64,000 bases of DNA from a virus, in IMG/VR virus record IMGVR_UViG_3300032229_000588, positions 13,457-77,456 of that record; one strand, written 5' to 3'. How positions within the stretch are numbered: the first letter of the stretch is position 1; each line of letters begins with the position of its first letter. The position numbers and the translations under genes were made by a program. This document shows, one piece after another, positions 9,609 to 52,611 of the stretch. Below the pieces are notes generated by a model. That model had not been told where the DNA came from and searched no databases. It was given only the letters and a program-made list of their open reading frames with translations.

Positions 9609-9709
9609 TATTAAATTATTCTGTTACAGATTTATTTTATTGATAAATATTAGAGATTTTACGAAAAAACTTTACTTTTGGATAAGTATTTATAAACGGT
9701 ATGAATTAA

Positions 9710-19922: not shown

Positions 19923-21599
19923 TTAAGACTCTTTTCTTAAACTTCTTTCATAATGTTCAAATCTATCGTGTTCTGTTGGTGTCATCAGTAACAATCCAGG
20001 GTATAACTCACCTTTCTTAACCAACTGATACATATGACTCATCCAAGTCTGTTCAAATGGATGACCCCATGTTGTATCTAAAAACATTTTTTGATTTCCT
20101 GTTCTTGTAACTATCTGAGGCCAATTACAATAATAAACTTCACCTGTCACATATGGTATTCCTTGAAACGAATTAATTGAATCGTATACGGCTCTTGGAG
20201 CATTTGGGTCCAACCCTTGAACAGGTAATCTATTTTTGCCAGGCCAAAATTGCTCTCTAACATTTTGAGGTACATTATACCAAGACCATTGGGTTCCGTT
20301 GTCACCAAAAAATTCACTGTAATTAAGTTTTAAGAAATCAAAGTTTTCTTTTTTAACAATCTGTAATGTCTTTGAATATAAATTTGGGACGTATCTGTTA
20401 AAACCATTACGACATACCTCACCTTCGTGTGGGTAGAAAAACATATCATCTTCAAAGAACAAATAGAAGTCTAAATCAGTTTCATTTTGAAAATGTTCTG
20501 CAATCCATTGACGACCGCCACAAATACCTAAATTATCTTTTTTAATATGTTCAAATCCATATTCTTCACATAACTCAGCATAATCGTCAAATGTTGATTT
20601 ATCACTGGAGTTATCTAATAAAAACTTTTTAGTTTTTAATAAATAATCTTTATCATACGCCTCCATTGACTCAATTAGAGTTAAGAATTGTTTTGGACTA
20701 TTAAAAGTAATAACATATAAACCAACTTTATTCACATCTAAAGAATTTGTAGTCCCTCTAATATTTTCTGATTTAGCAACTAAGTTATTGTTTTTTAAAT
20801 CTTCGAAAAACTTACCAACTAATCCGTTTGGTTCAATTTCAAAATAGTTAATTAAATCAGAATGTTTGTAACACATGATACTAAAGATTGATTCTTCAGT
20901 TCCCATGTAACCCTCATCTAACGTTGTCTTTAGTAAATTATAATATATTCCATTAATATCCGCAATTGAATGTTTTGGACCACCAAAAAACCCACCACGA
21001 GCAACTTTATTTACCTTTGCTCCCGCAAGAGAATTTAATTTATTATATTCAAATCCATGAATTTCTCTTTCCGCGTCGTATGGGAAACAAATAAATGAAA
21101 ACTTTGAAATGTATTTTGATAAATTATTAAAAACTTTATCATGGGTAAAATAACCTTGGTGAACGGTATTTGTTAATCCTCCATCAATCCAAAACATATA
21201 TTCAGAATCAAATCTGTCCATAATTTTTGCATCATGTAATAAGAATACTTTGGACATTACTAATGGATTATAATTTTCTAATCTACCTTGAGTCGATTCT
21301 TTTAACCATCCTGCCAAGTTTTGCCAGTTTTCATCAGTTCTGATAGACTGAATCTTATCAAAAAATTCAGAATCAGTGAACCAAGATAATGGTCTTAAAA
21401 CAAATTGGGTGTTGTCCGAACTACGTCTTTCAAATACAAACTTTTGAAGTTCTTCATCACCAAAAATTATCATATTCTCCTCACACTTTAAAAGTTGTTC
21501 GAACTTATCTAAATAATGTTGGAATGGTCTTGACCATCCTTCTGATAATTCACCTCTACCGATGTCCCAAATTCCTGTTACTAATGTTATATTACTCAT
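19923..21599 (-). CDS. Two-domain glycosyltransferase (HtrL/YibB/WlaTC-like N-terminus + GT-A C-terminus)
   Basis: TLVTGIWDIGR, YNPLVMSK, FWIDGG, GGFFGG, GTEE; second domain has DNS and FFEDD. Confidence 0.7.
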   Translation of the reverse strand: MSNITLVTGIWDIGRGELSEGWSRPFQHYLDKFEQLLKCEENMIIFGDEELQKFVFERRSSDNTQFVLRPLSWFTDSEFFDKIQSIRTDENWQNLAGWLKESTQGRLENYNPLVMSKVFLLHDAKIMDRFDSEYMFWIDGGLTNTVHQGYFTHDKVFNNLSKYISKFSFICFPYDAEREIHGFEYNKLNSLAGAKVNKVARGGFFGGPKHSIADINGIYYNLLKTTLDEGYMGTEESIFSIMCYKHSDLINYFEIEPNGLVGKFFEDLKNNNLVAKSENIRGTTNSLDVNKVGLYVITFNSPKQFLTLIESMEAYDKDYLLKTKKFLLDNSSDKSTFDDYAELCEEYGFEHIKKDNLGICGGRQWIAEHFQNETDLDFYLFFEDDMFFYPHEGEVCRNGFNRYVPNLYSKTLQIVKKENFDFLKLNYSEFFGDNGTQWSWYNVPQNVREQFWPGKNRLPVQGLDPNAPRAVYDSINSFQGIPYVTGEVYYCNWPQIVTRTGNQKMFLDTTWGHPFEQTWMSHMYQLVKKGELYPGLLLMTPTEHDRFEHYERSLRKES

Positions 21600-22473
21600 A
21601 GATTCTGTTAAATTCTTCTAATATTCTAAAAAAGCTTTTATTTACTGTGAACATTTCATCCGTCACTCCTGCGGGTGCATTATCTCTACACCACCAAATG
21701 TCAAAATGTTTACGTTCAAACAATTCACGATGATTTACATACATGAGACTCATAACTTGTTCTTCATGTGGAAGACCCTCATCCTCAGTTAAAATGTCAC
21801 TAACATATTTCTCAAACAAAGTTACAACCTCATCCCATTTATCTCTATGACCACCAAACATACCACCAATGATGTGAATACTTCTATCAAACTCTTTATA
21901 CCATTTTGGGTCAACAGTTCCCGACCAATAGTTTCGGTCGTTCTCTTTACCAAGAAGTAAAAACTTATCGTTAGTGTCGGTTATCACGTTTTTAAGAAAT
22001 TCATTATTGAATAGAGTACTTTCATAATATCTCGCTTGAGGATGTTCTCCAACAAGATATTTGTTTGGTATTAAACCACAATGTGAAAGACCAGCATCAA
22101 TCCAATAATAGTAGTCGTAAGATTTATCTTCGTTCCACCACCAATGGAATTTAGAGTATTGAATCTCAATACATCTATCTCCTTGTTTAATTTGGTCTAC
22201 ATTTTTTCTTAATTTGATTAAATCCCTGAATTTTGTTTCAGAAATGTCAAATATTTGAAATTTTAATTTTTCAGGTGAGATTGAGTGTTCGTCGTAAAAG
22301 AAAGACTTTAACGATTCGATTTCACGGTCTGATGTATAACATAGGAAATCTGCGTCGGTCATCTTTAACAATGAAAGAAGACTATATCTGTAATGACCAT
22401 TTCTACCTACCCTACCACCGAATTCTGTTCCGTGTAAATCACTGTATATTGATGTGATAAATTTAACTGACAT
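21592..22473 (-). CDS. HtrL/YibB-like glycosyltransferase
   Basis: YYWIDAG, IGGMFGG, EEQVMS. Confidence 0.65.
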   Translation of the reverse strand: MSVKFITSIYSDLHGTEFGGRVGRNGHYRYSLLSLLKMTDADFLCYTSDREIESLKSFFYDEHSISPEKLKFQIFDISETKFRDLIKLRKNVDQIKQGDRCIEIQYSKFHWWWNEDKSYDYYYWIDAGLSHCGLIPNKYLVGEHPQARYYESTLFNNEFLKNVITDTNDKFLLLGKENDRNYWSGTVDPKWYKEFDRSIHIIGGMFGGHRDKWDEVVTLFEKYVSDILTEDEGLPHEEQVMSLMYVNHRELFERKHFDIWWCRDNAPAGVTDEMFTVNKSFFRILEEFNRIYE

Positions 22474-23197
22474 ATGTAAATTCTTTGTGTTGTTTATTTT
22501 TTTTCATTTCATCGGTTAGTGTTCCATGTAAATACTCTGAAGGTATCTTACAAGGACTGTATAAATTCCAATTATATGTTTGAGTATAAAAATTATTGTA
22601 TTGTCCTTGAGACACATCAGACCAACTACTCATTTGAGGAGCAATTGGTAAAATTGGACAATAACTTTGTTTTAATGGGAGAATAAATTGATAGATGAAA
22701 TCATCAATTGCATAATAATTTAAATTTTCAGGAATCTCCATTTTAAGAACTTCGTCGTATATTGACTCATGATATAATATCATATTTGTTGCAAATATAC
22801 CCCTTTCGTGTTCTTTTTTTGGAGGTAAGTTTGTTATGTCTAAAAACAATGGTTGTTCTTCACTACGATTAACAGGTCGATTTAATGTTGGTGCAAAATT
22901 AATTATACCGAAATCAAACTCACCAGTTTCAGTTTCAATCTTATTAATTAAATCTTTTGAATATGGTAAGAAGGTACAATCATCTTCTATTACCAAAACT
23001 GATTTATATCCACGTTCTTTAGCGATTTTAATAATTTCAGTATGAGACAAAGTACATCCACCATGATGATTTAAATCAACCGCTTTAAACAATTCATAGT
23101 CCCAACCCATATAGTCCAATTCTTTTTGGATATGTTCTAATCGGTCAGGTCGTCTTTCTAAATTAACGACAAACTTAGGTATACTTGTGATATTCAT
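22463..23197 (-). CDS. GT25-like glycosyltransferase
   Basis: VVNLERRPDR, GCTLSH, VLVIEDD, AIDD. Confidence 0.75.
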   Translation of the reverse strand: MNITSIPKFVVNLERRPDRLEHIQKELDYMGWDYELFKAVDLNHHGGCTLSHTEIIKIAKERGYKSVLVIEDDCTFLPYSKDLINKIETETGEFDFGIINFAPTLNRPVNRSEEQPLFLDITNLPPKKEHERGIFATNMILYHESIYDEVLKMEIPENLNYYAIDDFIYQFILPLKQSYCPILPIAPQMSSWSDVSQGQYNNFYTQTYNWNLYSPCKIPSEYLHGTLTDEMKKNKQHKEFTYVS

Positions 23198-24462
23198 TAA
23201 CTAACGTGGTTGTGGGTTAATCTACCTGTGATTCTATCACACCATCCTTTTGATTCTGAGTGAGGCCATACAACCCAATAAGATGGCATCTCATCTGTTT
23301 GGAATTCTCTCCATACTTTACAATATCCATCAGGGTCTCTCATGAAACCTGCAATTTCATTTTTGTCCGCATCTTTTCTAAATAAAGTTTCATCTTTATC
23401 GTTATGGAATGCAACAACCCAAAAATCATAATCTGTTTCAGGAACTTGAGAATAACCAATATCAATGCAATGTTTGAACATCATACAGAAACTATCTTTC
23501 CATTCTTGTTCGGTTTCAAAATTATATGGGTTTGGTGGATAGTTTTTATCTAATGTGTGTTTGTCGATTGCTCTTTTTGAAAAAAGGATGCCTGTATATT
23601 TTTCATAATCAGTTAAGGTTCTAACAGGACCAAAACCATAAGGACCATCATGACCCTCTTGAGTTTCACCATCCATACCAAACAACTTTCTATTTGTTAA
23701 ATGTGAGTGAGTATTTCGTTGACCCCAAGTTTTGTCATCATCCCACTGTTTTGTTCTACCTTTACGAGTGTACTCATGGTAAACAACAGGGATGTGTGGG
23801 TGGAATAAATCGTAACCCCAAGTGTAAGCTCTTGCAGCAATTGAAATCTCTTCTCCGTGGAAATAATATTCAGGGTTGTGTTGAACTTCAGTTGAGAATT
23901 GTCCTAATGTAAAACAGAAGTGAGCCGAGTAGAATCTTGCAGTTACAGGTTTTGTCATTTCTCTCCAACCTGGAATTGTTTCAGGTAAGAAGAACACCGC
24001 ACCTTCAGGAATAAAACGGTCAAACACCATTCTCCAAGCGTCTTGAGCTCTCCCTGCAGGGTCATTTTCGGGGTCAAAAGAAGGAACGTAGCCCGTAAGT
24101 AGAGGCTTCTTATACCCGTCCTTCTGTAACCCCTTTATCATTTTGATAAGGATATCATCCCAATCCTTAACAAATCTCATGTGAGAATCAATTTGTAGTG
24201 TGTATGTTTCACCCTTGTAAAGTTGTTGAACTTGATGTCTTGCCCAACATACACCTTTGGCATCTTGATAAGGAATATCTAAGATTCTAAATCTTTTGTC
24301 TTTTCTGTATTCATCTAAGTTATCAAACCCATCTTCGTCGCTATATTGTCTTGCAATACCGATAACAAGGTTATTTGGTTTCTTGGCATTTGCCAACATG
24401 TCTTTAATTGTTGGGACCAACTGTGGGTCTCTGTACGATGCGATTTGAACGAATATTTTCAT
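23197..24462 (-). CDS. GT60-type polypeptide N-acetylglucosaminyltransferase (Gnt1/OGNT-like; GT27 ppGalNAc-T relative)
   Basis: IFVQIASYRD, G.CWAR, LQIDSHMRF (DxH), FHGEE, VYHEY. ATG 24462 is the likely start. Confidence 0.8.
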   Translation of the reverse strand: MKIFVQIASYRDPQLVPTIKDMLANAKKPNNLVIGIARQYSDEDGFDNLDEYRKDKRFRILDIPYQDAKGVCWARHQVQQLYKGETYTLQIDSHMRFVKDWDDILIKMIKGLQKDGYKKPLLTGYVPSFDPENDPAGRAQDAWRMVFDRFIPEGAVFFLPETIPGWREMTKPVTARFYSAHFCFTLGQFSTEVQHNPEYYFHGEEISIAARAYTWGYDLFHPHIPVVYHEYTRKGRTKQWDDDKTWGQRNTHSHLTNRKLFGMDGETQEGHDGPYGFGPVRTLTDYEKYTGILFSKRAIDKHTLDKNYPPNPYNFETEQEWKDSFCMMFKHCIDIGYSQVPETDYDFWVVAFHNDKDETLFRKDADKNEIAGFMRDPDGYCKVWREFQTDEMPSYWVVWPHSESKGWCDRITGRLTHNHVS

Positions 24463-24488
24463 GTAATAATATTTTATACATAAAAATA

Positions 24489-24518
24489 AAAAACCCTCCA
24501 CGAAGGTGAAGGGTTTTT
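24489..24518. terminator. Terminator-like hairpin between the mucin-like genes and the GT operon
   Basis: aaaaaccctccac-gaag-gtgaagggttttt. Confidence 0.55.
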
Positions 24519-24539
24519 GAGTATATTAATTTTGTTTTT

Positions 24540-25655
24540 TTAGATACATGCGTTAGGGTCAACTCCAGTAACTTCACCCAATCCTCCTGATACTATGAAC
24601 GCTGCAGTTCCATTAGAGTAGTATCCGTCAATAACAGGTACTGTTAATGCTGTATCGAAGTATAAGTACTCACCCGCGTTTGGACCAGGTCCTCCTGCTA
24701 CTGTACCATAGATTGTATTAGGTGCTGAAATAAAGTCAGTACATGCATCATTTGCCGTTGCTCCTGTTCCTAAACTATAAGTGTAATAACCAAATGTTGC
24801 CGTTGGTGTTGATGTAACTGTTGGTGTTTGTGTTGTAGTTGTTGTTACTGTTGGAGTTATTGTCGGTGTTAATGTGTTTGTCGGTGTTGGTGTTAAGGTT
24901 GTACATAATGAACCAAACCCTGTAGGAACACCAAAGTCATCCAATTCAGTAACATAATTACCATTTTTATAGAAACCACTCAAATCAACAGTTGAATTAC
25001 CTGTTGGTACATTCCAGAATTCAGTAGATAAATCAAATTGTGGGTTATTACCGTAAATTGTTACTGTTGAGTTATATTGACCACAAGCCTCATCTTGAGT
25101 TGTACCAGTATAAACTGTGAAAGCAACTCTAGCAATTGTTGGAGTTGGTGTCGGTGTTGCCGCTGCAGTTCCTGTTTGTGTATTTGTTGGAGTTATACTT
25201 GGTGTTGGAGTTACAGGTGAAGTTCCTGTAGGTGTAGGTGTTGGAGTTACTGCCGCAGTTCCTGTGTTAGTTGGTGTTGGGGTTACTGCCGCAGTCCCTG
25301 TTTGAGTTTGAGTTATTGTTGGTGTTGGTGTTGGAGTATGAGATGCGGTAACACTTGGTGTCGGTGTATTAGTTGCAGTAACACTTGGTGTTGGTGTATT
25401 AGTTGGTGTAACTGATGGGGTCATTGTAGGTGTTGGACTTGGGTAAACAGGTGGGAATACACCTTCATTTACCAATACAATACTACTTTGATATAGTTGT
25501 GCAATTGAATACGTGTTATTGATTAACCAAATATTTTTGGTTTGGTTAGGGTACAATTCTACCTGGTATTCCCACATAGAATCATCACATCTTCTATAAT
25601 TGAAGTTGATTATAGTAGAACCTGTGTTCGTCAAAGTATATTTACTACATGCCAT
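24540..25655 (-). CDS. Thr/Pro-rich mucin-like modular protein, probably virion surface
   Basis: Cys-containing N-terminal module (MACSKYTL...RRCDD), a ~100-aa TPTPT tract, and two 'G.T..AC...TIYG...GYY' modules separated by a second TP tract. Confidence 0.7.
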   Translation of the reverse strand: MACSKYTLTNTGSTIINFNYRRCDDSMWEYQVELYPNQTKNIWLINNTYSIAQLYQSSIVLVNEGVFPPVYPSPTPTMTPSVTPTNTPTPSVTATNTPTPSVTASHTPTPTPTITQTQTGTAAVTPTPTNTGTAAVTPTPTPTGTSPVTPTPSITPTNTQTGTAAATPTPTPTIARVAFTVYTGTTQDEACGQYNSTVTIYGNNPQFDLSTEFWNVPTGNSTVDLSGFYKNGNYVTELDDFGVPTGFGSLCTTLTPTPTNTLTPTITPTVTTTTTQTPTVTSTPTATFGYYTYSLGTGATANDACTDFISAPNTIYGTVAGGPGPNAGEYLYFDTALTVPVIDGYYSNGTAAFIVSGGLGEVTGVDPNACI

Positions 25656-25725
25656 CGTTTTGTTTTCTTTTAATATAAATACTTTATACAGGTTAAAGTT
25701 TACAACTAATTATTTTATTTTTTAA

Positions 25726-27687
25726 TTACGGTGTATAACTTGTCCTGATGTCAAGTTTATTTGTTGGTTGAGGTGGAACTAATGAAGAAATATAAAGACC
25801 TGTAAATGTATAAGTTCCACTTGCAGTAATTGTTTGAGTATACTGAACTCCATTAGAATCTGTCACAGTAAGGTCAATAGTACCCGATGGAACTGACTGT
25901 AAATCAATACCAACCTGAGCAGTATAGTTATTACTCCAATTTGATGTAGTAAATCCTGAATTAAATTGTGAAAATAATAATGGGAATCCATCACCACTTG
26001 CGGGTTGTCCAAGAGGTGAGGAACCTGTAACACCTGAAATGGTTACTCCTGTGATTGTACTTGCACTTGAACTATCGTAGTTTTCAACGTAAACAAATGT
26101 TGTTGGTTCAGGTAATAAACCTAACGATAATAAAATGGAATTACCATATAATTCATTCATTGTTGACGATGTAAATGTTGATATGTTGGCAACATATGCG
26201 TTTATACTCACCAATGTTGCCCCACTAACTTTCTTATAAGCCATCGCACTATAACTTGGTGAAACCCAAGTTGCTAATGATTTAGCTCCTGTTGATGTAG
26301 AAATTGGTGTTGCTGGTGTTGTGGTACTACTACCATTTATTGAAATCGAAGTTCCAAATCCGCTATTAGTTAAACCTGAAGTGATTGGATTACTTAACAC
26401 TTGATTAACCCATATAGTATTACCTGCAAATACAGTACCAACAGTATTTCTTACATTATATGCCGTTAGTTCTGAATGATTAAATCCTGAAGGATATGAT
26501 GACCATAATCTAGCCCCCGATACAAAGCTACCTCCACTACTCACATAATTATATAATGCGGTACTCAAAGTTGATGAGTATGGACTTCCACTCAATGAAT
26601 CTATGGTGTACATAACAACTGCATCATAATTCGAAGGTGTTATTCCATCACTACCTGTATAAGATGCGTCTAAAGTAACTGCCGAGAATGTTGATGAATA
26701 CCCCGTACTACTTAAGTAATTTTGTATTGATATTACTTCATCCGCAGCATTTGGACCTCCAATATATAATACATTAAATGCTGAAGTTGCAGTTGGAGTT
26801 GGTGTTGGGGTTGTTGTTGTAGTATTAGTTGGTGTGACCGCAGGTGTTCCCGTATTAGTTGGTGTTGGTGTGACATCAGGTGTTCCCGTATTGGTTGGTG
26901 TTGGTGTGACATCAGGTGTTCCTGTATTGGTTGGTGTTGGTGTTACAGACGCAGTCCCTGTGTTAGTTGGAGTTGGTGTGACATCAGGTGTTCCCGTATT
27001 GGTTGGTGTTGGTGTTACAGACGCAGTCCCTGTGTTAGTTGGAGTTATTGTAGGGGTTGGTGTTTGAGTTTCAGTTGCCGTTGGAGATGCACCAATTGTA
27101 CCTGTTGGAGTTGGGGTCGAAGTTTCAGTACTTGTTGGAGTTGGGGTCGAAGTTTCAGTACTTGTTGGAGTTGGTGTTGCACCTGCAGTTCCTGTATTAG
27201 TTGGTGTTGGTGTAACATTAGGCGTTCCTGTAACTGTTGCCGTTGGTGTCGGAGTTGATGTTTCAGTTGCGGTTGGGGTTGCCCCTATAGTTGCGGTTGG
27301 TGTTGAGGTTGCGTTTGGTGTACCCGAATTTGTTGGTGTATTTGTTGGTGTACTTGTATTCGTAGGAGTAACTGCTGGTGTTCCTGTATTAGTAGGTGTG
27401 ACTGAAGTAGTCGTAGTTTGTGTTGGGGTATTACTTGGGGTTACACTTGGCGTAGGTGTAGGTGTTGGTGTTACATAAACTGGTGGAAATACACCATTAT
27501 CCTCCAAAATTAAATTTGTATTATACAATGGAGCGATTGAAAAAGTATCATCCATTAACCAAATATTTTTGGTTTGATTAGGGTATAACTCTACTTGGTA
27601 TTCCCACATAGAGTCATCACATCTCCTGTAATTAAAGTTTATTACGGTAGTTCCAGTATTTGTTAAAGTATATTTACTACAAGCCAT
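25726..27687 (-). CDS. Thr/Pro-rich mucin-like protein with globular C-terminal domains
   Basis: N-terminal module nearly identical to that of 24540..25655; ~230-aa T/P tract; S/T-rich globular C-terminus. Confidence 0.7.
26840..27046. repeat. Intragenic 36-bp tandem repeat ([12 protein letters not shown]) with 72-bp higher-order units
   Basis: Units such as gtgacatcaggtgttcccgtattggttggtgttggt repeat about 5-6 times. Confidence 0.8.
27103..27174. repeat. Intragenic perfect 30-bp tandem repeat ([10 protein letters not shown])
   Basis: tgttggagttggggtcgaagtttcagtact x2 plus a partial third copy. Confidence 0.8.
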
Positions 27688-27711
27688 CTTAATTTTTTAT
27701 TGTTAAATATT

Positions 27712-29808
27712 TTATATTATAATTGATTCTACCGCAATAGTCCCTCCACTTAAGAAAGTCACTTTTTGACTACTATCCGCAGCATCTAACACAACATTTA
27801 CAGGAATATTTGTGTAAAGTATTGGATTTCCACCTGTACCACCTGAAAAAGTTAAGTTTTGATTAAAGTTGGTAAATGTAAAATTATTATTTCTACATTG
27901 ACCTGAAGTATCTAAATCGGCAAATGTTGTACCATTCATCCCATAAGAAATTTTATTATTTATAAAAAAATCTTGAATTACGTTAAACGTAAATAAGTCA
28001 CCAATCGTATTGTCGTAGAAATATTCTCCAATGTCGTTACCTTGGAATCCATTTCCAATTACATTACCTCTATAGTTTCCGCCTCCGTAACCAAAGTCAC
28101 TTGCAATTGTATTACTTGTAAAGTAGTCACCAATTTGGTTATATGAAAAATTGGTTGAGATTGTATTACTATAAAACTCGTGTCCGACTTTGTTAAATTG
28201 TGTGTTACCTGTAAAAGTATTATTACGGCAACCACTTTGAAATGAATTATGGTCGAAGCTAAAATTTTGAATATTTGCAGCATCACCTATATTATTACTA
28301 TAGAAATCAGACCCTAAATTATTTTGTGTAACGTTGTGGTAAAAAATATTATTGTAAAGATTTGGTCCACCAGTATTGGTCTGAAAAGACCCGTAGAAAG
28401 TGTTTGTATAAACAGAATCACCAAGTACATTATTGTCGAAGTTTTGTTTAATGATGTTACCGTTAAATACATTACCAATTTGATTGTCATCGAAAGTACC
28501 CGTAATAGTATTATCAGTGAAATTGGTGCCAATTACGTTTCTCGCAAAACCATAATGAATTAAATTCTGATTAAAATTATTACCAATTTTATTATTAACA
28601 AAATCATTATCACTAAAAGTAAAAAAGTTATTTTGGAATCCCCAACCTACTTGATTGAAATCAAAATCTTGTCCATCGTTGTCTCCTAACATATTATAGT
28701 CAAAATTACCAACAATGGTATTCCCTTGCATATCACATTCTATAAAGTTGTATGTAAAGTCAGAACCAACTATATTATTATCAAAATTATTTGTTATAAT
28801 GTTGAATTGGAAAAATGGACCGCAGGTAGAACTAGTCATAAAATTGTCAAACGTGTTACCAACAACATTACCTCCAAATGTCATATCTTCATAGTTACCA
28901 TTCAAAAACACGTTATTAGACAAAATGAAATCATTATAATTTTGATTATCTCCCAAATATGTGTTGAAGTTTTGATTATTGTTGAATGTGTAATATTCTG
29001 AGGAACCTGTATATGACGGTGTAGGTACGTTACATTGGAATGGTGACCTAAGTCCTCCTGAAAGACCTCGTGAATAAAATCTGTTACTTGTAGAATAGAA
29101 GGTTGTACCTGTTACTGTCATATTTGTCGCGTCGGCAATGGTTAAGATTTCATAATACGCGAAGCCACCAATAAGATTAGTGCCTGGAGTAAATATACCT
29201 AAAATATTACCAACTGAAAAAGTGTTATCAAAATCAGTACCGACTCCAACAACATTACCTGAACCATCTATTGATACCGTACCAGTATAATAATCTTCAG
29301 ATAAAAATGCTTGATATCTGATAAACTGAACTGCTCTGAAATCGTACTCCGCTCTGTTATTATTTTGGTCAATTCTTTCAGTAATTCTTCCTTTTGCAGG
29401 TGAACCTGTTACTTCAGTTGTACTCCACGTAAAATCATATGATATTTTATCTTTAGGATAAAGTGTGGAATATACAGTTGGGGAGAATTCATTTGCTGAT
29501 ATTGCCAACAATAAAATTGGTTCTGTAGTTCCTGTTTTATAATTTCCTGTTGTTATTGCAACACCCTCATTAGTATAATTTGGTTGGTCATAACAAGTTT
29601 GGAAATCTGTCATTAAATAATATTGACCAACAACTAAATTACTAGTATTAGATGCTATAGTTAATCCTGAATACGTAGCTTGACTATAGTTAATACCTGA
29701 AAAGGCAATGTGATAAGTCGTACCCGCCTCTTCAACTGGGATTAAAAGGTTATTTGTTGTATAATCTAATGCCGTTAATTCACCGATTGTTTTTCCTGTT
29801 AGTGCCAT
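27712..29808 (-). CDS. Asn/Phe-rich beta-solenoid fibre/spike-like protein
   Basis: Many ~10-aa N.IG..F..N.I repeats in the C-terminal half; N-terminal YLMTDFQT...EP....A..N domain. Confidence 0.6.
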   Translation of the reverse strand: MALTGKTIGELTALDYTTNNLLIPVEEAGTTYHIAFSGINYSQATYSGLTIASNTSNLVVGQYYLMTDFQTCYDQPNYTNEGVAITTGNYKTGTTEPILLLAISANEFSPTVYSTLYPKDKISYDFTWSTTEVTGSPAKGRITERIDQNNNRAEYDFRAVQFIRYQAFLSEDYYTGTVSIDGSGNVVGVGTDFDNTFSVGNILGIFTPGTNLIGGFAYYEILTIADATNMTVTGTTFYSTSNRFYSRGLSGGLRSPFQCNVPTPSYTGSSEYYTFNNNQNFNTYLGDNQNYNDFILSNNVFLNGNYEDMTFGGNVVGNTFDNFMTSSTCGPFFQFNIITNNFDNNIVGSDFTYNFIECDMQGNTIVGNFDYNMLGDNDGQDFDFNQVGWGFQNNFFTFSDNDFVNNKIGNNFNQNLIHYGFARNVIGTNFTDNTITGTFDDNQIGNVFNGNIIKQNFDNNVLGDSVYTNTFYGSFQTNTGGPNLYNNIFYHNVTQNNLGSDFYSNNIGDAANIQNFSFDHNSFQSGCRNNTFTGNTQFNKVGHEFYSNTISTNFSYNQIGDYFTSNTIASDFGYGGGNYRGNVIGNGFQGNDIGEYFYDNTIGDLFTFNVIQDFFINNKISYGMNGTTFADLDTSGQCRNNNFTFTNFNQNLTFSGGTGGNPILYTNIPVNVVLDAADSSQKVTFLSGGTIAVESIII

Positions 29809-29832
29809 AGTTTTTTATTTTATAAATAGTTT

Positions 29833-31209
29833 TTAAAATTCAAGATATTCGTTAGTACCAACACTCAAATATTCATCATTACCAATTAAAATTGCATTTA
29901 TAATAATTGGGTCATTTGTTGGTGTTGGTGTTTGAGTTAATGTTGGTGTTGGTGTCTGTGTTGCACAAAGTGAACCAAATCCTACAGGATTACCTTGTGA
30001 ATCAAGTTGTACCACATAACTAACATTTTTATAATATCCCGTCATGTTAATAGTTGAATCTCCATTCAATACGTTCCAAAATTTTGTTGATAAATCAAAC
30101 TGAGTATTATTACCATAAATGGTAGTTGACGGGTTAATTTCATTACAAGCGTCGTTTTGTGTAACTCCTGAATAAACCGTAAATGCAATTCTACTATGAG
30201 TTGGTGTCGGAGTTGGTGTTAAACCTACAGTTACTGTTGGTGTAACAGTTTGAGTAATGGTTGGTGTTGGAGTATTTGATGTTGTAGTTGTTGGTGTTGG
30301 AGTGTTGGATGATGTATTAGTCGGTGTTGGAGTATTAGATGCCGTGTTACTTGGTGTGTTTGTTTGAGTTGGGGTATGACTTGGAGTTACACTTGGTGTT
30401 GGAGTATTACTTGCAGTATTGGTTGGAGTTACCGTTGGTGTTGGTAAAGGACAACCACCTAAATACGTAATTGTTCCGTCTCCATCGGCAATTATAATTT
30501 CCTCCGCACAGAATATTAATGTTTGGAATACGTCTAAGAAGAAATCAAATACAAATCCGTCACAATCTCTACCAACAAAAGAGGTTTGGTTTGTCACACC
30601 ACCAAATAATAAGTAAGTTTTACAAATTGAATTAGTGGGTGTTTGAGTATTAGTTGGTGTGTTAGTTGGAGTTGTTGTGTTAGTCGTAGTGACTGTCGGA
30701 GTTGTTGTTGGCGTTGACGTGTTAGTCGGAGTAACTGTTGGCGTTTCAGTATTGGTTGGAGTGACGGTCGGAGTTGATGTTTCAGACGCAGTAATACTTG
30801 GAGTAATTGACGGTGTTGGCGTGTTACTTGCAGTTGCGGTCGGAGTCAATCCTATGGTTACTGATGGAGTTGGTGTTTGAGTTACAGTTGGAGTTACAGT
30901 TGGTGTTTCAGTAGTTGTTGGTGTTGGAGTTAATGTTGAGGTTGGGGACGGACTTAATCCTGGTGTTAATGTTGGTGTTTGAGTATTTGTTGGTGTAGGA
31001 CTTGGTGTAGGACCTGGTACATTTACTGAATATGTGTATCCATAAGTTGGAACATAACAGTTGTAAATACCATAATAATAGTCGGAAATATAATTAAATG
31101 GAAATACTTGGGTACCTAAATCAATCGTACCTCCACTATCAGGAAGATACGTCACTTCTGTGGTCTGACCACTTAAATTATCACTTAAAATTCTTACCCC
31201 TATTGCCAT
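29833..31209 (-). CDS. Thr/Pro-rich mucin-like modular protein
   Basis: Three T/P tracts separating a C..Y...C.G...C module and a G.T..AC...TIYG...GYY module. Confidence 0.7.
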
Positions 31210-31236
31210 GTCTATAAATACGTATTTGTTTTCATT

Positions 31237-31791
31237 TTAACCACAAATTCCAGTATTAACTACTAATGTTCCTGAAAGTTGTATAAATGTTGCTCCGTCA
31301 GATATTGTCGAATTTGCATTTATTGGTGGGATTGTTAATGACATATTACCGTAAACATTATCACCAGGACTTAATTCACTGAAAGGTATTAAAGTATAAA
31401 TTGTAACATTTGAAGGAGTTGCAAACATGGTTACATCTTGACACACATCTTGATAATAACCTCCACTCCATAAATTATATGTGTAGATAATAACAGGAGT
31501 TCTTGTTGGTGTTGGTGTAAATGATGGTGTTGGTGTAACAGTTGGAGTTACAGATGTTTGTGTTGGTGTTGGAGTAATTGATGGAGTTGGCGTTGTTGAA
31601 GGACAAAGTCCCATAATTACCACATCCAAAGGAGCCGCATAATCCTCAACATATAAATCATTAGCACAAACGTAACTTGTTTGTAAAGGTTCAACGCCAG
31701 TTACACTGACGATACCTGTACATCCTGTCCATCTGTAAAAACCTTCTTGGACATTATTGTAATTTGTTATTCTATAGTAGTCGCAACTCAT
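31237..31791 (-). CDS. Small mucin-like two-module protein
   Basis: MSCDYYRITN...TGCTG...C module, TP linker, then a DVC...TIY module. Confidence 0.65.
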   Translation of the reverse strand: MSCDYYRITNYNNVQEGFYRWTGCTGIVSVTGVEPLQTSYVCANDLYVEDYAAPLDVVIMGLCPSTTPTPSITPTPTQTSVTPTVTPTPSFTPTPTRTPVIIYTYNLWSGGYYQDVCQDVTMFATPSNVTIYTLIPFSELSPGDNVYGNMSLTIPPINANSTISDGATFIQLSGTLVVNTGICG

Positions 31792-31795
31792 TTGA

Positions 31796-34411
31796 TTAGA
31801 TGAATAAACCGTTAAAGGTGACTAAGTTATACTGTAATGAGGTGATATTTTCACCTTCAATACAATTAGATTCGTTAATTGTCACCGTGGTTCCAGGTGA
31901 TAATGCACCGTACGCGGCAGTAAATGTGTTGTTGTAGAATGTATAGTTATCAGGGTCGGCAACCATAGTTCCCCCTTTATATAATGTAACTCTAATTGTT
32001 ACAGGATTTGAACCAAGTTCTCCATACCAAAATGCTTTAGAATTCATTACTATTACATTTTCACCAGGATATTGAGATTTAAATTCAATTAAGTCAATTA
32101 ACACGGATTCAAATCCTGTACCCGTATTATCTCCACCCCATGTTAAAATTGGATTACCCGTTGTTGGCCATTGTTCAGAACAACACCAACCAATAGAGTC
32201 AGTCAATGTTGTTTGACCTATATCAGGTACAGTAACTTTTGTTCTTGTATCTAAATCTATACCGTCAGTAAACGCATAAGTTAATACGATATAATCGGCA
32301 TCAAATGTGAAACCACCAGGTACAAATGGTATTGAAGTTGGAGTTGGTGTTAGAGTTGGTGTAGGGGTTTGAGTTACTCCATTTGTTGGAGTTGGTGTAG
32401 GTGTTGGAGGAATAGTTGGAGTTGGTGTAGGTGTTGGAGGAATAGTTGGTGTGGGTGTAGGTGAACTAGTTTGTGTTGGTGTTGGATTAATTAATTCGTA
32501 ATACAAATCATTCGCAGGAATACTAATATAATGCAAATCATTTGAAGGTATGAATATTCTACAATTAGGGCAATCAGGGTCTAATAGATTGTATTTTAAT
32601 TTTAATAATCTAAAGTTGTGTTTGATTTGAGACGCGTTTAATGGTTCGGTATACATTCTAAATGCACTAACGTCACCAATCATACTACCACCAAAATATT
32701 CTTCTAATTTAATATGAGTAGTTAAACCTGAGTAAATTGTATTATCTAAATCGTGAGTTGTTAAACATTCTGGGTCTTGTTGATAAACCATCTCTTCAAT
32801 TGTTTCAGGACATACACCTGAGAATGTTAGGTTATCGTGAAGACCTTGAGTTCCTCCACCAATTGAAATGTTATATCCAACTCCAATTTGTTTTTCTTTT
32901 GGAGTGTTCAATAATCTTGGAATAATTTCTTCAAAGTTTTCAGTAACCATGAATAGCTTTCCATTCACATAAAACTTAAGTGTACCCAATCGATACTTTT
33001 GTTCTTCAGTCCACATGTCATTGAACGTAACAACTTCAGTCGATGCTGGGTCATAAGGTTGTTCACGAGTGATTGGTGGTTCAATTAATGAAACACTTCT
33101 ATTTTCAAGGGTTGCATAATAAACATCCTTAACAAGTAGACCAAGTCCCCCCTTATCATATAAGTCACATTTATCTAACCATTCATATCTTTGGAAGACA
33201 GCGTCAATCTGAACCCAATGTTCTACGTTTGAATATGTGGTTCCTGAACAATTGTCAAAAATACCTCTTGTTGAACACCATTCGGTTAATGATGTTCCTG
33301 TCACATAAGTAAGTCCTGTCAAACAAGTTCCTGTACTTTCACATCCACCTGTTATCCTATATGTCTTAACACATAGTCTTGGACTACCTGTATCACCACT
33401 TAATCTTAATGATAGGGCGTTTGAAACCTCATCATATAATGGGTCTTTTTCAGGGTATTCCGCCTTAGATTCACAATCACATGGACAACCACAAGTACAA
33501 TGTGTTATTGTCCCACCTGAAGGTTGGTATACCTGCATACAATCTGATGATGTGTTGGCAGTACTTGCACAACCACAAGTGTGCATACAAGTTAAACCTG
33601 ACGTAACTCTTGTGTAACCCGTGTCTTGTTTTGGACTACCATCGGCGTAATGGTAAAATTTATTTTCGGCTCTTGCCCCCATGTAAAAGAACGTACCCTT
33701 ATTGTCGGGGTATCTATTGTTAAGACCTCCTGATGTATCACCAGTCCATCTATATCTTAACATGAATTCTGCTGTCCAACCTAAAGAAACTCTTTGTGGG
33801 AAAACTTGGTAATCGTATCCTGGTATTTTATAAAATCCTTGGAAGAATCCACCTTTTAAATTGGCAACGTATCCGATATCTCCACCAACATTTTGATACG
33901 ATAAATCGTAGGTATATGAATCATCATCCCATAATCTATTTTCAGTTGTTGTAAAACCTGTGATAGGGTGAAGTTTCATTCTCCTATCATATTTGTATCG
34001 ACTAAACTTGTCTGAAATATTTGTATATAATCCTGTTGTAATTTCGATTGTCTCACCCGACATGTTTTGAACAAGTCCGTTATCAATACCCGTTAACCCA
34101 ACATCACATAATTCTGTTACGATTGGACAAAAATTTGGGTCAACGTCATCAGGGTTCCAATAATTTTCAGAAACGATTGTTTGATAGTCAAAAGAACATG
34201 CAGATGTTTGACATAATGTTGTTCCTGAACTATTGAAATCAAACTTAAATGGCATTCTGTTTCCGTCCAATTCGCCAATTAATAATGGCGAAAAAACGAC
34301 TTCTTGGTCATAGTCTCTCTCGTCCGACGCTAAACAAATGTCGGTGATTTCATTGACAGGTTTTATCCCCCATCTACGAAAATTATACTGATTAATATTC
34401 TGATATGCCAT
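31796..34411 (-). CDS. Large virion protein: Cys-rich / LamG-like region, TP linker, C-terminal domain
   Basis: LKFYVNGKL and G.....FRMYTEPL..SQI..NF (LamG-like); CTCGCPCDC cluster; TPTPT linker; DLDT...WGGDNTGTGFES domain. Confidence 0.55.
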   Translation of the reverse strand: MAYQNINQYNFRRWGIKPVNEITDICLASDERDYDQEVVFSPLLIGELDGNRMPFKFDFNSSGTTLCQTSACSFDYQTIVSENYWNPDDVDPNFCPIVTELCDVGLTGIDNGLVQNMSGETIEITTGLYTNISDKFSRYKYDRRMKLHPITGFTTTENRLWDDDSYTYDLSYQNVGGDIGYVANLKGGFFQGFYKIPGYDYQVFPQRVSLGWTAEFMLRYRWTGDTSGGLNNRYPDNKGTFFYMGARAENKFYHYADGSPKQDTGYTRVTSGLTCMHTCGCASTANTSSDCMQVYQPSGGTITHCTCGCPCDCESKAEYPEKDPLYDEVSNALSLRLSGDTGSPRLCVKTYRITGGCESTGTCLTGLTYVTGTSLTEWCSTRGIFDNCSGTTYSNVEHWVQIDAVFQRYEWLDKCDLYDKGGLGLLVKDVYYATLENRSVSLIEPPITREQPYDPASTEVVTFNDMWTEEQKYRLGTLKFYVNGKLFMVTENFEEIIPRLLNTPKEKQIGVGYNISIGGGTQGLHDNLTFSGVCPETIEEMVYQQDPECLTTHDLDNTIYSGLTTHIKLEEYFGGSMIGDVSAFRMYTEPLNASQIKHNFRLLKLKYNLLDPDCPNCRIFIPSNDLHYISIPANDLYYELINPTPTQTSSPTPTPTIPPTPTPTPTIPPTPTPTPTNGVTQTPTPTLTPTPTSIPFVPGGFTFDADYIVLTYAFTDGIDLDTRTKVTVPDIGQTTLTDSIGWCCSEQWPTTGNPILTWGGDNTGTGFESVLIDLIEFKSQYPGENVIVMNSKAFWYGELGSNPVTIRVTLYKGGTMVADPDNYTFYNNTFTAAYGALSPGTTVTINESNCIEGENITSLQYNLVTFNGLFI

Positions 34412-37225: not shown

Positions 37226-38440
37226 ATGTCGAAAATTAAAATCTTAGTAGTACCATCCGATAGAACAGGAGTTGGTAAATTTAGGTCGGTAGACCCTCAC
37301 GTCTTTTTACAGAATCTTTATGGTGATGATTTCCATGTGGACATCGATTATGAGCCACCTTATGATGATATGTCATATTGGTCTCAATACCAAATTGTTG
37401 CTTGTCACAGAAGTATTGGTCCTGATTTTGAAAAGGCGAATGAACTTATCAAAAAACTTACGGAAAACGGTATAATCACAATTGTCGATATTGACGATTA
37501 TTGGATGCCAGGTAAAGAACACCCAATTCACGATATCATCAGATTCAATAAGATTAACGAAAAAATTGTAGCGAATCTTAAAGTCGCGTCTTACGTAACA
37601 ACTACAACTACGTTATTTGCAGATGAGATTAAAAAATTCAATAAGAATGTAGTTGTATTCCCAAATGCGATTAATCCACAAGAACCACAGTTCAACGAAC
37701 CAACTTTAGAATCTGATAAAATTAGGGTTGGATGGTTAGGTGGTTCATCTCACTTACATGACTTACAGTTATTGGATTCACCATTAGGTAAAATAACTCA
37801 CTTAAAAGACAAGTTACAATTTGTTTTATGTGGGTTCGATACTAGAGGGACTGTAACCGAAATTAACCAACAAACAGGTGAACACAAAAAAAGAGATATT
37901 CTTCCACACGAAACGGTATGGGCACAATACGAAAAGATATTTACCCAAAACCATTTGTTAGTTTCTGAAGACTACAAAAAATATCTTCTTAAATACACTC
38001 AAGAAAAATATCCAAATGAACTTGACGAATCTTATGTAAGGGTTTGGACACAACCTGTAACATCTTACGCTAAGAATTATTCAAAGTTTGACGTATCTTT
38101 GGCTCCAATCAAAAATACAATGTTTAACCGAATGAAATCTCAGTTAAAGGTAATTGAAGCAGGCTTCTATAAAAAAGCTATTATCGCATCCGATTTAGGA
38201 CCATATACAATAGATTTGAAACATTGTTTGAATCACGGTAACTTTGTTGATGGTAATGCGATGTTGGTCGATGAAAATCGAAACCACTCAGATTGGGCAA
38301 AGTATATCAAGAAATTAGTTGAAAATCCTAGTATGATAAAAGACATGGGTGAAAGATTGTATGAGACAGTAAAAGACACTTACGACTTAAATGTTGTTAC
38401 AAAAAACAGAGCGGAATTTTATAAATCATTAATTAAATAA
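37226..38440 (+). CDS. GT-B (GT4-like) glycosyltransferase
   Basis: DIDDYW, GWLGGSSH..DL, LAPI...FNRMKSQLKVIEAG...IIASD.GPY. Confidence 0.75.
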   Translation: MSKIKILVVPSDRTGVGKFRSVDPHVFLQNLYGDDFHVDIDYEPPYDDMSYWSQYQIVACHRSIGPDFEKANELIKKLTENGIITIVDIDDYWMPGKEHPIHDIIRFNKINEKIVANLKVASYVTTTTTLFADEIKKFNKNVVVFPNAINPQEPQFNEPTLESDKIRVGWLGGSSHLHDLQLLDSPLGKITHLKDKLQFVLCGFDTRGTVTEINQQTGEHKKRDILPHETVWAQYEKIFTQNHLLVSEDYKKYLLKYTQEKYPNELDESYVRVWTQPVTSYAKNYSKFDVSLAPIKNTMFNRMKSQLKVIEAGFYKKAIIASDLGPYTIDLKHCLNHGNFVDGNAMLVDENRNHSDWAKYIKKLVENPSMIKDMGERLYETVKDTYDLNVVTKNRAEFYKSLIK

Positions 38441-38442
38441 TC

Positions 38443-38898
38443 ATGGACTCAAAAAAAGGTAGGATAGGGTTTACCGCGGGTAACTTTGATTTATTACATC
38501 CAGGTTACATTTACACATTTGAATCAGCAAAAGAAAACTGTGATTATTTTATAGTTTTCTTACAAAGAGACCCATCTTTAACAAGATTCACAAAATATAA
38601 ACCTGTAGTTCCTCTATATGAACGATACAAAGTTTTAATGTCAATAAAGTACATTGATGAGGTTGTTTGTTATGATGATGAGGATGACTTATTACGTCTT
38701 ATTGAATTTTACAAACCTGACGTAAGAATTCTTGGTGATGACTATATCGGTAAAAGATTTACTGGTGACCACCTACCAATTGATGTTGTCTACACTACTC
38801 GTGCTCACGGTTGGTCTACAACAAAAATCAAAGATTTAATTACAATCCAAACTTTAAAACAAAATCCAGAAATCACTAATAATATAGAAAATGTTTAA
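38443..38898 (+). CDS. TagD-like cytidylyltransferase
   Basis: GNFDLLHPGY, ER...L.SIKYIDEV, LGDDY, R.HGWSTT. Confidence 0.8.
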   Translation: MDSKKGRIGFTAGNFDLLHPGYIYTFESAKENCDYFIVFLQRDPSLTRFTKYKPVVPLYERYKVLMSIKYIDEVVCYDDEDDLLRLIEFYKPDVRILGDDYIGKRFTGDHLPIDVVYTTRAHGWSTTKIKDLITIQTLKQNPEITNNIENV

Positions 38899-40212: not shown

Positions 40213-40358
40213 GTACAAAAGAAAAATTAGAAAAGGAATTAAATAAGGTTAAACAACAATTAGTGATGAAAGATGCTAATGATGGTTGGTGGAATCTTTA
40301 CATGGAAGAACGGAAAAGTTTTTTAGAAAAATTAATTAAAGAATTAGATAACAAATGA
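40209..40358 (+). CDS. Small helical hypothetical protein, 49 aa; not in the ORF track
   Basis: MSTKEKLEKELNKVKQQLVMKDANDGWWNLYMEERKSFLEKLIKELDNK; ATGA overlaps at both ends. Confidence 0.55.
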   Translation: MSTKEKLEKELNKVKQQLVMKDANDGWWNLYMEERKSFLEKLIKELDNK

Positions 40359-44512: not shown

Positions 44513-44513
44513 T

Positions 44514-45323: not shown

Positions 45324-45325
45324 TC

Positions 45326-46159: not shown

Positions 46160-46160
46160 T

Positions 46161-46970: not shown

Positions 46971-46972
46971 TT

Positions 46973-47581: not shown

Positions 47582-47584
47582 TTA

Positions 47585-48454: not shown

Positions 48455-48467
48455 AACAAACACAAAT

Positions 48468-49921: not shown

Positions 49922-49936
49922 ATTTAAAACAACATA

Positions 49937-51556: not shown

Positions 51557-51557
51557 T

Positions 51558-52610: not shown

Positions 52611-52611
52611 T

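Follow-up and report, generated by a model that had tools for sequence, protein, structure and literature searches.

A candidate mucin-type O-glycosylation locus in a freshwater jumbo phage: a GT60 glycosyltransferase operon beside threonine/proline-rich proteins

Mucin-type O-glycosylation is regarded as a process of the eukaryotic secretory pathway, and glycosylation of phage-particle proteins has been shown only recently, for few sites on mycobacteriophage capsids and tails. What, then, does a phage do with a GT60 glycosyltransferase that is encoded next to a series of proteins with long threonine/proline (T/P) tracts? The question is raised by a stretch of 64,000 nucleotides (nt) from IMG/VR virus record IMGVR_UViG_3300032229_000588 (positions 13,457 to 77,456; hereafter the window), in which five T/P-rich genes and a set of overlapping glycosyltransferase genes lie together on the minus strand (Table 1). 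We consider it fairly probable that the locus is a phage-encoded, cytoplasmic, mucin-type protein O-glycosylation system. As unrelated phages and bacteria also pair GT60 with T/P tracts, the most likely reading is that the phage coats its own appendages with sugar.

The virus record is 77 kb long and has a CheckV completeness of 26%, which points to a jumbo phage of about 300 kb. The window has a G+C content of ~33% and encodes a tail sheath, a baseplate hub, a head-tail adaptor-like protein, a helicase and a DNA polymerase. No deposited phage matched the region at the DNA level (megablast). IMG/VR contains 366 contigs with a relative of the window GT60 gene, the lineage is very common in freshwater metagenomes, and the phage is an uncultured freshwater jumbo phage. 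Comparisons within the phage clade made use of the best 80 of the 366 IMG/VR loci (GT60 84–99% identical), one of which is a complete 309-kb genome (G011). The protein database holds more than 7500 GT60 homologues at E ≤ 1e-5, the best 120 being 73–92% identical, and the bacterial comparison comprised 80 GT60 loci with 1.32 Mb in total. Among deposited phages, only XacN1, Xoo-sp13 and two Stenotrophomonas phages carry GT60.

The GT60 enzyme and the threonine/proline-rich proteins

A preliminary description of the locus had assigned the first transferase gene to GT60 and had reported its DSH (DxH), FHGEE and YH motifs to be intact. A hidden Markov model search agrees with the assignment: the protein matches PF11397 with 225.8 bits (E 1.4e-66, cut-off 21) in two stretches, the best of which aligns residues 66–306 with model positions 94–349, and it also matches phrog_24687 (9.6e-167). 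Homologues start at the ATG at 24462 (421 amino acids, aa) and not at the GTG at 24501 chosen by the caller of open reading frames (ORFs; 434 aa). Within the motifs, D105, H107, E217, E218 and H242 are invariant in 40 homologues of 33–49% identity, and by what is known of GT27 and GT60 enzymes these would be the catalytic positions. An AlphaFold2 model built on the 40-homologue alignment (mean predicted local distance difference test, pLDDT, 94.0; predicted template modelling score 0.89) bears out the suggested kinship to the GT27 polypeptide N-acetylgalactosaminyltransferases (GalNAc-transferases). As listed by Foldseek, the PDB matches at ranks 1–43 are all GT27 enzymes, and those listed include GalNAc-T1/2/4/7/10/12, PGANT9 and TgGalNAc-T3 (E 1.5e-10 to 1.7e-8). 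Sequence identity to these structural matches is only 11–18%, and sequence searches of the PDB with the GT60 protein and with the 40-sequence profile returned no related solved chain, the sole row being a chance 25-residue match. An all-beta C-terminal domain (about aa 335–430 in the 434-aa numbering) occupies the place that the lectin domain has in GalNAc-transferases.

GT60 had been described as the first of four overlapping transferase genes (GT60-type, GT25-like, HtrL-like and HtrL+GT-A) that follow directly on the T/P genes. The genes overlap by 1, 11 and 8 nt, and the GT60, GT25-like and HtrL+GT-A assignments stand; the 293-aa protein turned out to be only weakly HtrL-like, with no Pfam match even at E ≤ 1, and a hairpin lies between the two gene sets. 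Homologues of the 293-aa protein are found in the same cassette in XacN1, Xoo-sp13 and six bacterial loci. Of the 80 close relatives, 51 carry the GT25-like gene, which is absent from the bacterial and the XacN1 loci alike. The 558-aa HtrL+GT-A protein, the C-terminal half of which scores as GT2 (PF00535) in a 62%-identical Saprospiraceae homologue, is the conserved partner of GT60: the two are neighbours in 76 of the 80 phage loci and 32 of the 80 bacterial ones, as well as in XacN1 and Xoo-sp13.

All five co-oriented T/P genes that had been listed (starts at 34411, 31791, 31209, 27687 and 25655) are present on the minus strand between 24540 and 34411, and the longest tract, put at up to ~230 aa before, measures 242 aa here (in the protein encoded at 25726-27687). 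These five are the only ones among 65 window ORFs to pass our T/P filter (T+P ≥ 60% in 30 residues, ORFs ≥ 100 aa). Their tracts sum to 714 aa and consist of 40% Thr, 22% Pro and 7% Ser, with no Lys and very few charged residues, a composition that is that of a mucin Pro/Thr/Ser (PTS) domain. No membrane segment is predicted in any T/P protein or transferase.

The 371-aa gene is the T/P gene nearest to GT60 and lies directly upstream of it. Across 17 aligned homologues of its product, neither the N-terminal module nor the Thr at alternate positions changes, the tract length and the intervening residues vary, and the Pro positions of the tracts are often occupied by N, S, Q, G, A or V instead. 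In its AlphaFold model, the tracts have a pLDDT below 50 (predicted disordered) and the two domains one of about 80. The MACSKYTL module at its N-terminus is common to the 653-aa protein and to relatives. The best conserved of the T/P set is the 184-aa protein, with homologues of 183–191 aa in 52 of 80 related loci and the T/P tract kept in all of them; the 458-aa protein has only modules in common with its relatives (median best high-scoring segment pair, HSP, 13% of the protein). For the N-terminal domain of the 871-aa protein there is a weak concanavalin-A/LamG_3-like lead, from language-model neighbours alone (protein atlas). Its C-terminal domain matches phrog_24956 (1.2e-21) and, in tblastn, the crAssphage 'tail protein' KP06_gp62, cyanophage ORFs and XacN1 ORF372, a neighbour of the tail sheath genes with a (TP)3 site of its own. 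A sixth co-oriented gene inside the cluster encodes a 698-aa protein that is found in just 6 of 80 relatives; its aa 44–207 match an annotated tail fiber protein of Clostridium phage phiCT453A (2e-13), and it is probably fibre-like. Judged from these models and alignments, the T/P proteins look like modular beads on a string, small domains being joined by disordered tracts.

The tracts also bear on the nature of the acceptor. Dictyostelium and Toxoplasma Gnt1, which belong to GT60, modify hydroxyproline, and hydroxyproline in place of Thr, as in the Skp1/Gnt1 pathway, would suit tracts with 22% Pro; in addition, one relative (G012) has a PF13640 gene. That gene lies about 75 kb from GT60, however, and the earlier observation that no prolyl hydroxylase is visible extends, for PF13640 as the one oxygenase family searched, to the whole record and to the complete 309-kb relative. 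Thr exceeds Pro by 2:1, and it is Thr that is invariant and Pro that is often replaced. The absence of PF13640 together with the conservation of Thr favours Thr as acceptor, which fits the initial preference for Thr/Ser, and we regard hydroxyproline as very unlikely.

Recurrence of the pairing in phages and bacteria

Co-occurrence of GT60 with T/P genes across relatives had been named as a check on the proposed system, and the outcome is strongly positive in close phages, in XacN1-type phages and in unrelated bacteria. Wherever an IMG/VR locus extends 1 kb or more upstream of GT60, as is so for 75 of the 80, the gene is immediately preceded by one to four T/P ORFs of its own strand, and no T/P ORF lies downstream; the five loci that show no T/P ORF end sooner, each with less than 1 kb of sequence on the upstream side. 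Among relatives, the genes on the flanks are arranged collinearly and are 73–88% identical over their full length. The T/P genes, in turn, share modules only, with a median best HSP of 7–31% of the protein, and the spacing of the conserved anchor genes varies between 3.9 and 10 kb. The T/P cassette is hypervariable, yet T/P tracts are kept, and the link between GT60 and T/P tracts looks functional rather than mere synteny.

In XacN1 and Xoo-sp13, GT60 heads a cassette with a homologue of the 293-aa protein, an HtrL+GT-A homologue and a carbamoyltransferase. The cassette adjoins a 3313-aa protein with a TP tract, which follows the baseplate wedge genes. The two phages have 26–29 (TP)3 sites, spread over many large proteins that are encoded near tail genes, and RaK2, Atu_ph07 and SCTP-2, related jumbo phages without GT60, have no (TP)3 site in 1.28 Mb. 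Purified XacN1 virions gave at least two periodic-acid-Schiff-positive bands (PMC5852040, Supp. Fig. S4), and the authors proposed at that time that phage transferases make virion glycoproteins (PMC5852040).

The preliminary description had introduced GT60 by way of its protist enzymes. These do belong to the family, which is, however, not eukaryote-specific: an exhaustive search gave 4547 representative clusters, mostly prokaryotic or viral, and Bacteroidota, Gemmatimonadota, Verrucomicrobiota, Acidobacteriota, Actinomycetota and Pseudomonadota have homologues of 36–71% identity on their chromosomes. A quick maximum-likelihood tree places the phage clade (support 99) within a Bacteroidota-dominated group (98), beside Saprospiraceae and Lewinellaceae, and groups the XacN1-type phage enzymes with Burkholderiales (support 100). 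The two separate positions suggest two separate exchanges between phages and bacteria, and the first of them hints that the host of the window phage could be a member of the Bacteroidota. Copies 57–76% identical to that of the window lie on contigs filed under bacterial metagenome-assembled genomes ('Candidatus Elulimicrobium', Melainabacteria, Alphaproteobacteria; protein P0085, loci L085, L091, L092 and L096). These contigs, mostly short and with 29–43% G+C (the P0085 contig has about 100 kb), may be jumbo-phage contigs binned with bacteria.

Two further observations concern the spread of the family. On a marine low-G+C contig filed as 'Planctomycetaceae TMED10' (L103), GT60 (49% identity) lies between two T/P proteins (614-3445 and 7502-9265), one of which starts with a MAC...Y.L module resembling the MACSKYTL domain of the window; the contig is probably a marine relative of the window phage group. 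Giant proteins of 1600–2500 aa contain three to five GT60-like stretches each (P0122, P0123, P0124, P0135, P0150).

Among the bacterial GT60 loci, 22 of 80 have a T/P-rich ORF within 10 kb, several of them immediately adjacent. A (TP)4-coding tract is present in 15 of the 80 loci compared to about 0.3 expected, a ~50-fold enrichment (Poisson about 1e-20), for which the background (12 sites not next to GT60 in 52 Mb) comprises only 10 genomes and some of the positive loci are related (Burkholderiales VgrG). Even so, at least six independent T/P carrier architectures beside GT60 remain. In Achromobacter (5.7 Mb) and Gemmatimonadaceae (3.8 Mb), the GT60 locus contains the sole (TP)4 site of the genome; in Ralstonia, it contains the dominant one of three sites, and in Acidimicrobiaceae two of seven. 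Five genomes without a T/P ORF near GT60 have zero to three (TP)4 sites each.

The bacterial T/P carriers are unrelated to each other and to the phage T/P proteins. In Achromobacter, Ralstonia, Paraherbaspirillum, Trinickia and Paraburkholderia, VgrG spikes of type VI secretion systems (T6SS) with C-terminal (TP)n tails are encoded 1–4 kb from GT60; the Achromobacter VgrG was confirmed by Pfam (Phage_GPD with gp5_C), and the others were called from sequence. Small proteins with a PqqD domain (by Pfam), a hydrophobic stretch and a T/P tail lie beside GT60 in Gemmatimonadaceae, and in five phyla the neighbours are small proteins with a twin-arginine-like leader (RRxLLQxLG) followed by 100–200 residues of T/P tract. 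Both kinds of small protein may be glycosylated peptides or exported mucin-like proteins. In Verrucomicrobiota, BNR-repeat or large (LamG-like by eye) T/P proteins are found beside GT60.

Table 1. Coordinates of the features discussed, in window positions unless a locus is named
Feature	Coordinates	Strand	Description
GT60/PF11397 glycosyltransferase, 421 aa	23197..24462	-	ATG 24462 start; GT-A catalytic domain plus all-beta C-terminal domain
GT25-like glycosyltransferase, 244 aa	22463..23197	-	PF01755 2.3e-12; overlaps GT60 by 1 nt
293-aa protein, possibly HtrL-like	21592..22473	-	pairwise E 0.003 to HtrL domain of next gene
558-aa two-domain HtrL_YibB + GT-A/GT2-like protein	19923..21599	-	PF09612 1.2e-20
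871-aa T/P protein	31796..34411	-	large N-terminal domain, T/P linker aa 635-702, C-terminal domain aa 700-871
184-aa T/P protein	31237..31791	-	small Cys-containing N-terminal domain, T/P linker aa 59-105, C-terminal domain
458-aa T/P protein	29833..31209	-	tracts aa 63-186 and 252-342 between small globular modules
698-aa Asn-rich repeat protein	27712..29808	-	no T/P tract; inside T/P cluster
653-aa T/P protein	25726..27687	-	65-aa N-terminal module (MACSKYTL start), tract aa 64-305, Ser/Thr-rich C-terminal region
371-aa T/P protein	24540..25655	-	MACSKYTL module, tract aa 66-176, alpha/beta domain, tract aa 255-285, second alpha/beta domain
Intrinsic-terminator-like hairpin	24489..24518	-	13-pair stem, 5 G-C pairs, then T run
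TATTTAT examples	9643, 19911, 25675, 29822, 31214, 34421	-	
TATTTAT examples	13691, 15262, 34441, 54172	+	
Sugar-nucleotide and glycosyltransferase island, 16 kb	37226..53418	+	outside the T/P and transferase locus, opposite strand
Second T/P group of G011 (L167, G011:C1:68000-86000)	ORFs 4784-7102, 7423-9891, 12144-13661		
VgrG-(TP)n loci	L132:15049-17520, L156:12294-15158, L111:13900-16389		also L131, L140, L148, L160
Small T/P protein loci	L098:9311-9955, L095:8510-9235		also L086, L113, L120, L135, L137

Transcription, glycan supply and the proposed pathway

A TATTTAT motif had been noted just upstream of four of the five T/P genes. It is exact for three of them, at a distance of 16 nt from the 871-aa gene, 11 nt from the 458-aa gene and 26 nt from the 371-aa gene; the gene starting at 27687 has TATTTAA and the one starting at 31791 has no such motif. 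TATTTAT also precedes the 698-aa gene, which lacks a T/P tract, by 20 nt. Of the 24 copies in the window, 16 lie in sense orientation within 60 nt upstream of a gene start, and in total 16 of 59 genes, tail sheath, tail and neck genes included, have the motif 11–48 nt upstream. TATTTAT has the sequence of the T4 late promoter core TATAAATA in reverse complement, and from its placement it is probably a phage promoter element. A scan for sigma-70 promoters found no excess (72 matches vs 68.7 in shuffled sequence).

Between the T/P genes and GT60 lies an intrinsic-terminator-like hairpin, inside which the GTG at 24501 falls. Given this hairpin, the two gene sets would not form one operon but be separately controlled, and they are probably separate transcription units. 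Four freshwater metatranscriptome runs yielded contigs that map to the transferase and T/P genes, with good coverage of both sets in two of the runs (X12, X16), and one contig of 1104 nt spans the whole 371-aa gene. The contigs leave 27765-29417 uncovered, in the 698-aa gene that is absent from most relatives. They are compatible with expression of the locus, to be read with the limits that they give no strand, ends or level and that RNA libraries can contain DNA.

The 16-kb island on the opposite strand adds seven transferase genes (one GT4-like, a GT2_5+GT4 fusion, two GT2, and one each of GT11, GT10 and GT1-group), a nucleotide-sugar dehydrogenase, two short-chain dehydrogenase/reductase (SDR) type epimerase/reductases, a cytidylyl/adenylyltransferase and FkbM and CmcI-like methyltransferases, with exonuclease, dUTPase and PhoH genes interspersed. 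The best NCBIfam match of the SDRs is GDP-L-fucose synthase, far below cut-off, and no clear GDP-mannose dehydratase was found in the island. None of the island proteins has a membrane segment. The island is the probable supply and extension machinery for the glycan, and judging from the family names only, extensions could possibly include 6-deoxyhexoses, uronic acid and O-methyl groups.

Such enzymes might serve a different end. The operon and the island could remodel an envelope glycan of the host (lipopolysaccharide, LPS, capsule or S-layer glycan) or synthesise an oligosaccharide, whether free or lipid-linked, with a block to superinfection as one conceivable purpose, in which case the T/P adjacency would be inherited synteny. 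The GT25 and HtrL_YibB families are named for LPS loci, and the GT2, GT4, GT10 and GT11 families of the island are typical of O-antigen loci. In line with this, transferase clusters of jumbo phages have been read as surface-polysaccharide modification systems (PMC7824862). Every protein concerned is predicted to be soluble, however, and the annotated window proteins, from a record that represents 26% of the genome, include no membrane-embedded or lipid-carrier priming enzyme, flippase or polymerase. The predicted fold of GT60 is closest to the polypeptide-modifying GT27 enzymes, and all characterised GT60 members of which we know act on protein. Lastly, the GT60–T/P linkage recurs in unrelated genomes, where synteny cannot be inherited. 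We therefore take envelope remodelling to be quite unlikely.

The surroundings of the operon also raise the possibility that the transferases modify phage DNA (glycosylated hydroxymethyl-pyrimidines) as a protection against restriction. The operon adjoins the DNA polymerase gene, the XacN1 cassette lies near DNA polymerase, RNase H and NUDIX genes, the island contains a dUTPase/dCTP-deaminase-like gene, and in PHROG the 558-aa protein faintly matches, over its C-terminal half, a T-even DNA glucosyltransferase (E 0.003). We considered DNA modification as the leading explanation and rejected it: the GT60 fold matches polypeptide transferases, we know of no DNA-modifying GT60 member, and no hydroxymethylase was present among the window proteins scanned. 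Moreover, a dozen transferases together with fucosyltransferase-family and methyltransferase genes far exceed known DNA glycosylation systems, and the bacterial GT60 loci are chromosomal and lie beside VgrG or T/P proteins. DNA as the target is highly improbable.

The analysis shows the gene content, the family and predicted fold of GT60, the composition of the tracts, the enriched GT60–T/P linkage and the predicted solubility of the components; the acceptor Thr, the donor sugar, how the glycan is extended step by step, the place of the proteins in the virion and their biological function belong to a protein-directed mechanism that we infer. In it, modular proteins, in a variable set and with small folded domains on uncharged, disordered T/P tracts, would be made late in infection. 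The soluble GT60, with a uridine-diphosphate-N-acetylhexosamine-type donor and a DxH/His metal site, would place the first sugar, taken to be GlcNAc in the preliminary description, on many Thr and fewer Ser of the tracts. The HtrL+GT-A partner would extend the glycan, and is the obvious second step because it travels with GT60 in phage, XacN1-type and bacterial loci. The GT25-like and 293-aa proteins may add to the extension, and probably so would the island transferases, the fucosyltransferase-family enzymes and the methyltransferases. As neither membrane segments nor flippase, polymerase and lipid-carrier enzymes were found, the chemistry would take place on folded or nascent proteins in the host cytoplasm. 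Glycosylated tracts would then form extended stalks or hinges on virion appendages, which are the likeliest destination of the T/P proteins in view of the partial homologies to tail and tail-fibre proteins and the upstream motif common with the tail sheath gene. That the cassette turns over rapidly suggests a function in recognising the host or in protection against proteases or the environment.

Several points weigh against this mechanism. T/P tracts are also common as unglycosylated linkers. The virion homologies of the T/P-cluster proteins are weak and partial, none of the T/P proteins has a PHROG structural assignment, and a fold search with the 371-aa protein gave no match at E ≤ 0.001, so that its small globular domains are without a recognisable fold. 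G011 carries a second T/P group about 80 kb from GT60, with three proteins of 772, 822 and 505 aa, one of which has the phrog_24956 domain, as does the 871-aa protein of the window. The LPS-derived family names, the probable separation of the transcription units and the narrow, partly related sampling behind the (TP)4 enrichment belong on the same side, as does the fact that the Schiff-positive XacN1 bands are not named in the supplement (PMC5852040).

The bacterial loci contribute to these objections. No T/P ORF lies within 10 kb of GT60 in 58 of the 80. The closest cellular pair of GT60 and HtrL-GT (70% and 62% identity), on a Saprospiraceae chromosome of the same low G+C (L087, 9980-13092), adjoins a divergent gene for a cargo of the type IX secretion system, a sulfotransferase gene and genes with housekeeping functions; T/P ORFs are lacking from its vicinity, and the 7.3-Mb genome has zero (TP)4 sites. 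With this genome and most bacterial loci lacking such tracts, the GT60 family must have other acceptors too, and the Saprospiraceae context gives a hint of the lineage to which the phage's host belongs and of another acceptor in that bacterium. It could also be, then, that in the phage itself GT60 and its partners glycosylate other phage or host proteins (capsid, sheath, Ser/Thr of folded domains), and that the T/P tracts are mere linkers in a neighbouring hypervariable fibre cassette. The hairpin that parts the two gene sets would fit this, and Freeman et al. 2023 are said to have located mycobacteriophage virion glycosylation on capsid and tail-tube subunits. Such a target would leave hard to explain, however, why (TP)4 tracts, some of them unique in their genome, are enriched ~50-fold beside GT60 in multiple lineages, why T/P tracts and GT60 are co-present or co-absent in the RaK2-like jumbo phages and why Thr is the invariant tract residue. 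We consider it unlikely, if the least so of the alternatives, and retain glycosylation of the T/P tracts as the preferred explanation.

A wider proposal can be made only tentatively, and we would put it somewhat short of an even chance: GT60 and HtrL+GT-A could be the core of a widespread, undescribed prokaryotic pathway of mucin-type O-glycosylation, which acts in the cytoplasm on T/P tracts that are later assembled or exported. Its targets would be phage fibres, the (TP)n tails of VgrG and the small PqqD or twin-arginine-like T/P proteins; jumbo phages would have acquired it on two or more occasions from the lineages of their hosts, and the clade of the window phage would have expanded it with the 16-kb island into a virus-made glycocalyx.

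If the phage system is real, the appendages of abundant freshwater jumbo phages bear a dense coat of glycans that the phages themselves make, with consequences for host recognition, particle stability, surface adhesion and grazing or immune recognition. The position of GT60 beside VgrG spikes suggests that type VI secretion machines undergo a modification not known so far. XacN1 and Xoo-sp13 on Xanthomonas offer a culturable test system, simple peptide substrates make the question directly testable, and the enzymes, if they act as proposed, could serve as tools for making mucin-like glycoproteins in bacteria.

Comparison with known systems

The characterised relatives within GT60 are protist enzymes, namely the mucin-directed OGNT of Trypanosoma cruzi and Gnt1 of Dictyostelium and Toxoplasma, which acts on Skp1-hydroxyproline. 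The window enzyme belongs to the same Pfam family, keeps the DxH...His and GEE positions, is soluble as cytoplasmic Gnt1 is, and lies beside mucin-like Thr/Pro sequences as in T. cruzi. In contrast to the protist enzymes, it is prokaryotic or viral in origin, has an extra all-beta C-terminal domain and is accompanied by the HtrL+GT-A protein instead of the protist extension enzymes, its own activity being predicted from sequence; the T. cruzi enzymes are Golgi membrane proteins.

The GT27 GalNAc-transferases provide the best structural matches and have the same layout of a GT-A domain followed by a C-terminal beta-rich domain. They act on Pro-flanked Thr in disordered PTS tracts, as the window GT60 would. 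They differ in belonging to another CAZy family at 11–18% identity, and the window enzyme has no membrane anchor or secretory pathway, its C-terminal domain being at most a possible ricin-type lectin.

A prokaryotic parallel is found in the serine-rich-repeat adhesin loci of Gram-positive bacteria, where GtfA/GtfB start O-linked N-acetylglucosamine on GspB/Fap1-type proteins and further transferases extend it. Here as there, a repetitive Ser/Thr acceptor is encoded beside a cytoplasmic initiating N-acetylhexosamine transferase and extension transferases. The initiator of those loci is a GT-B (GT4) pair and not GT60, and they rely on accessory Sec export, whereas no export genes were seen here and the products are presumably assembled into virions.

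Another comparison is with the XacN1 ORF330-334 cassette, which unites GT60 (45% identity) with the 293-aa and HtrL+GT-A homologues in a phage that encodes proteins with TP linkers, one of them homologous to the 871-aa C-terminal domain, and for which periodic-acid-Schiff-positive virion proteins are reported. It differs from the window in having a carbamoyltransferase and no GT25 gene, in its TP tracts, which are short and scattered over many large proteins whereas those of the window are concentrated in the adjacent cassette, and in its GT60, which belongs to another branch, with Burkholderiales.

In the chloroviruses (PBCV-1 Vp54), mimiviruses and mycobacteriophages (Freeman et al. 2023, cited in PMC12801897), too, virus-borne soluble transferases and sugar-nucleotide enzymes modify the viruses' own structural proteins in the cytoplasm. 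In those cases the targets are capsid or tail-tube proteins with few sites, and the transferases belong to other families. We know of no description of a virus-encoded system in which a GT60 initiator goes together with long mucin-like T/P tracts, and full-text literature searches (GT60 in phage, virion O-glycosylation on T/P, VgrG glycosylation) found none, in agreement with the statement in the preliminary description that no dedicated mucin-substrate and initiating-transferase cassette had been described in a phage. The XacN1 authors drew the same parallel with virus-encoded virion glycosylation (PMC5852040); their glycoprotein remark (PMC5852040) and the reading of transferase clusters as surface-polysaccharide modifiers (PMC7824862) are the nearest prior statements. 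Mucin-type O-glycosylation and virus-encoded virion glycosylation are thus each known, and what is new at this locus is the GT60 initiator, the dedicated T/P substrates and the prokaryotic cytoplasmic setting.

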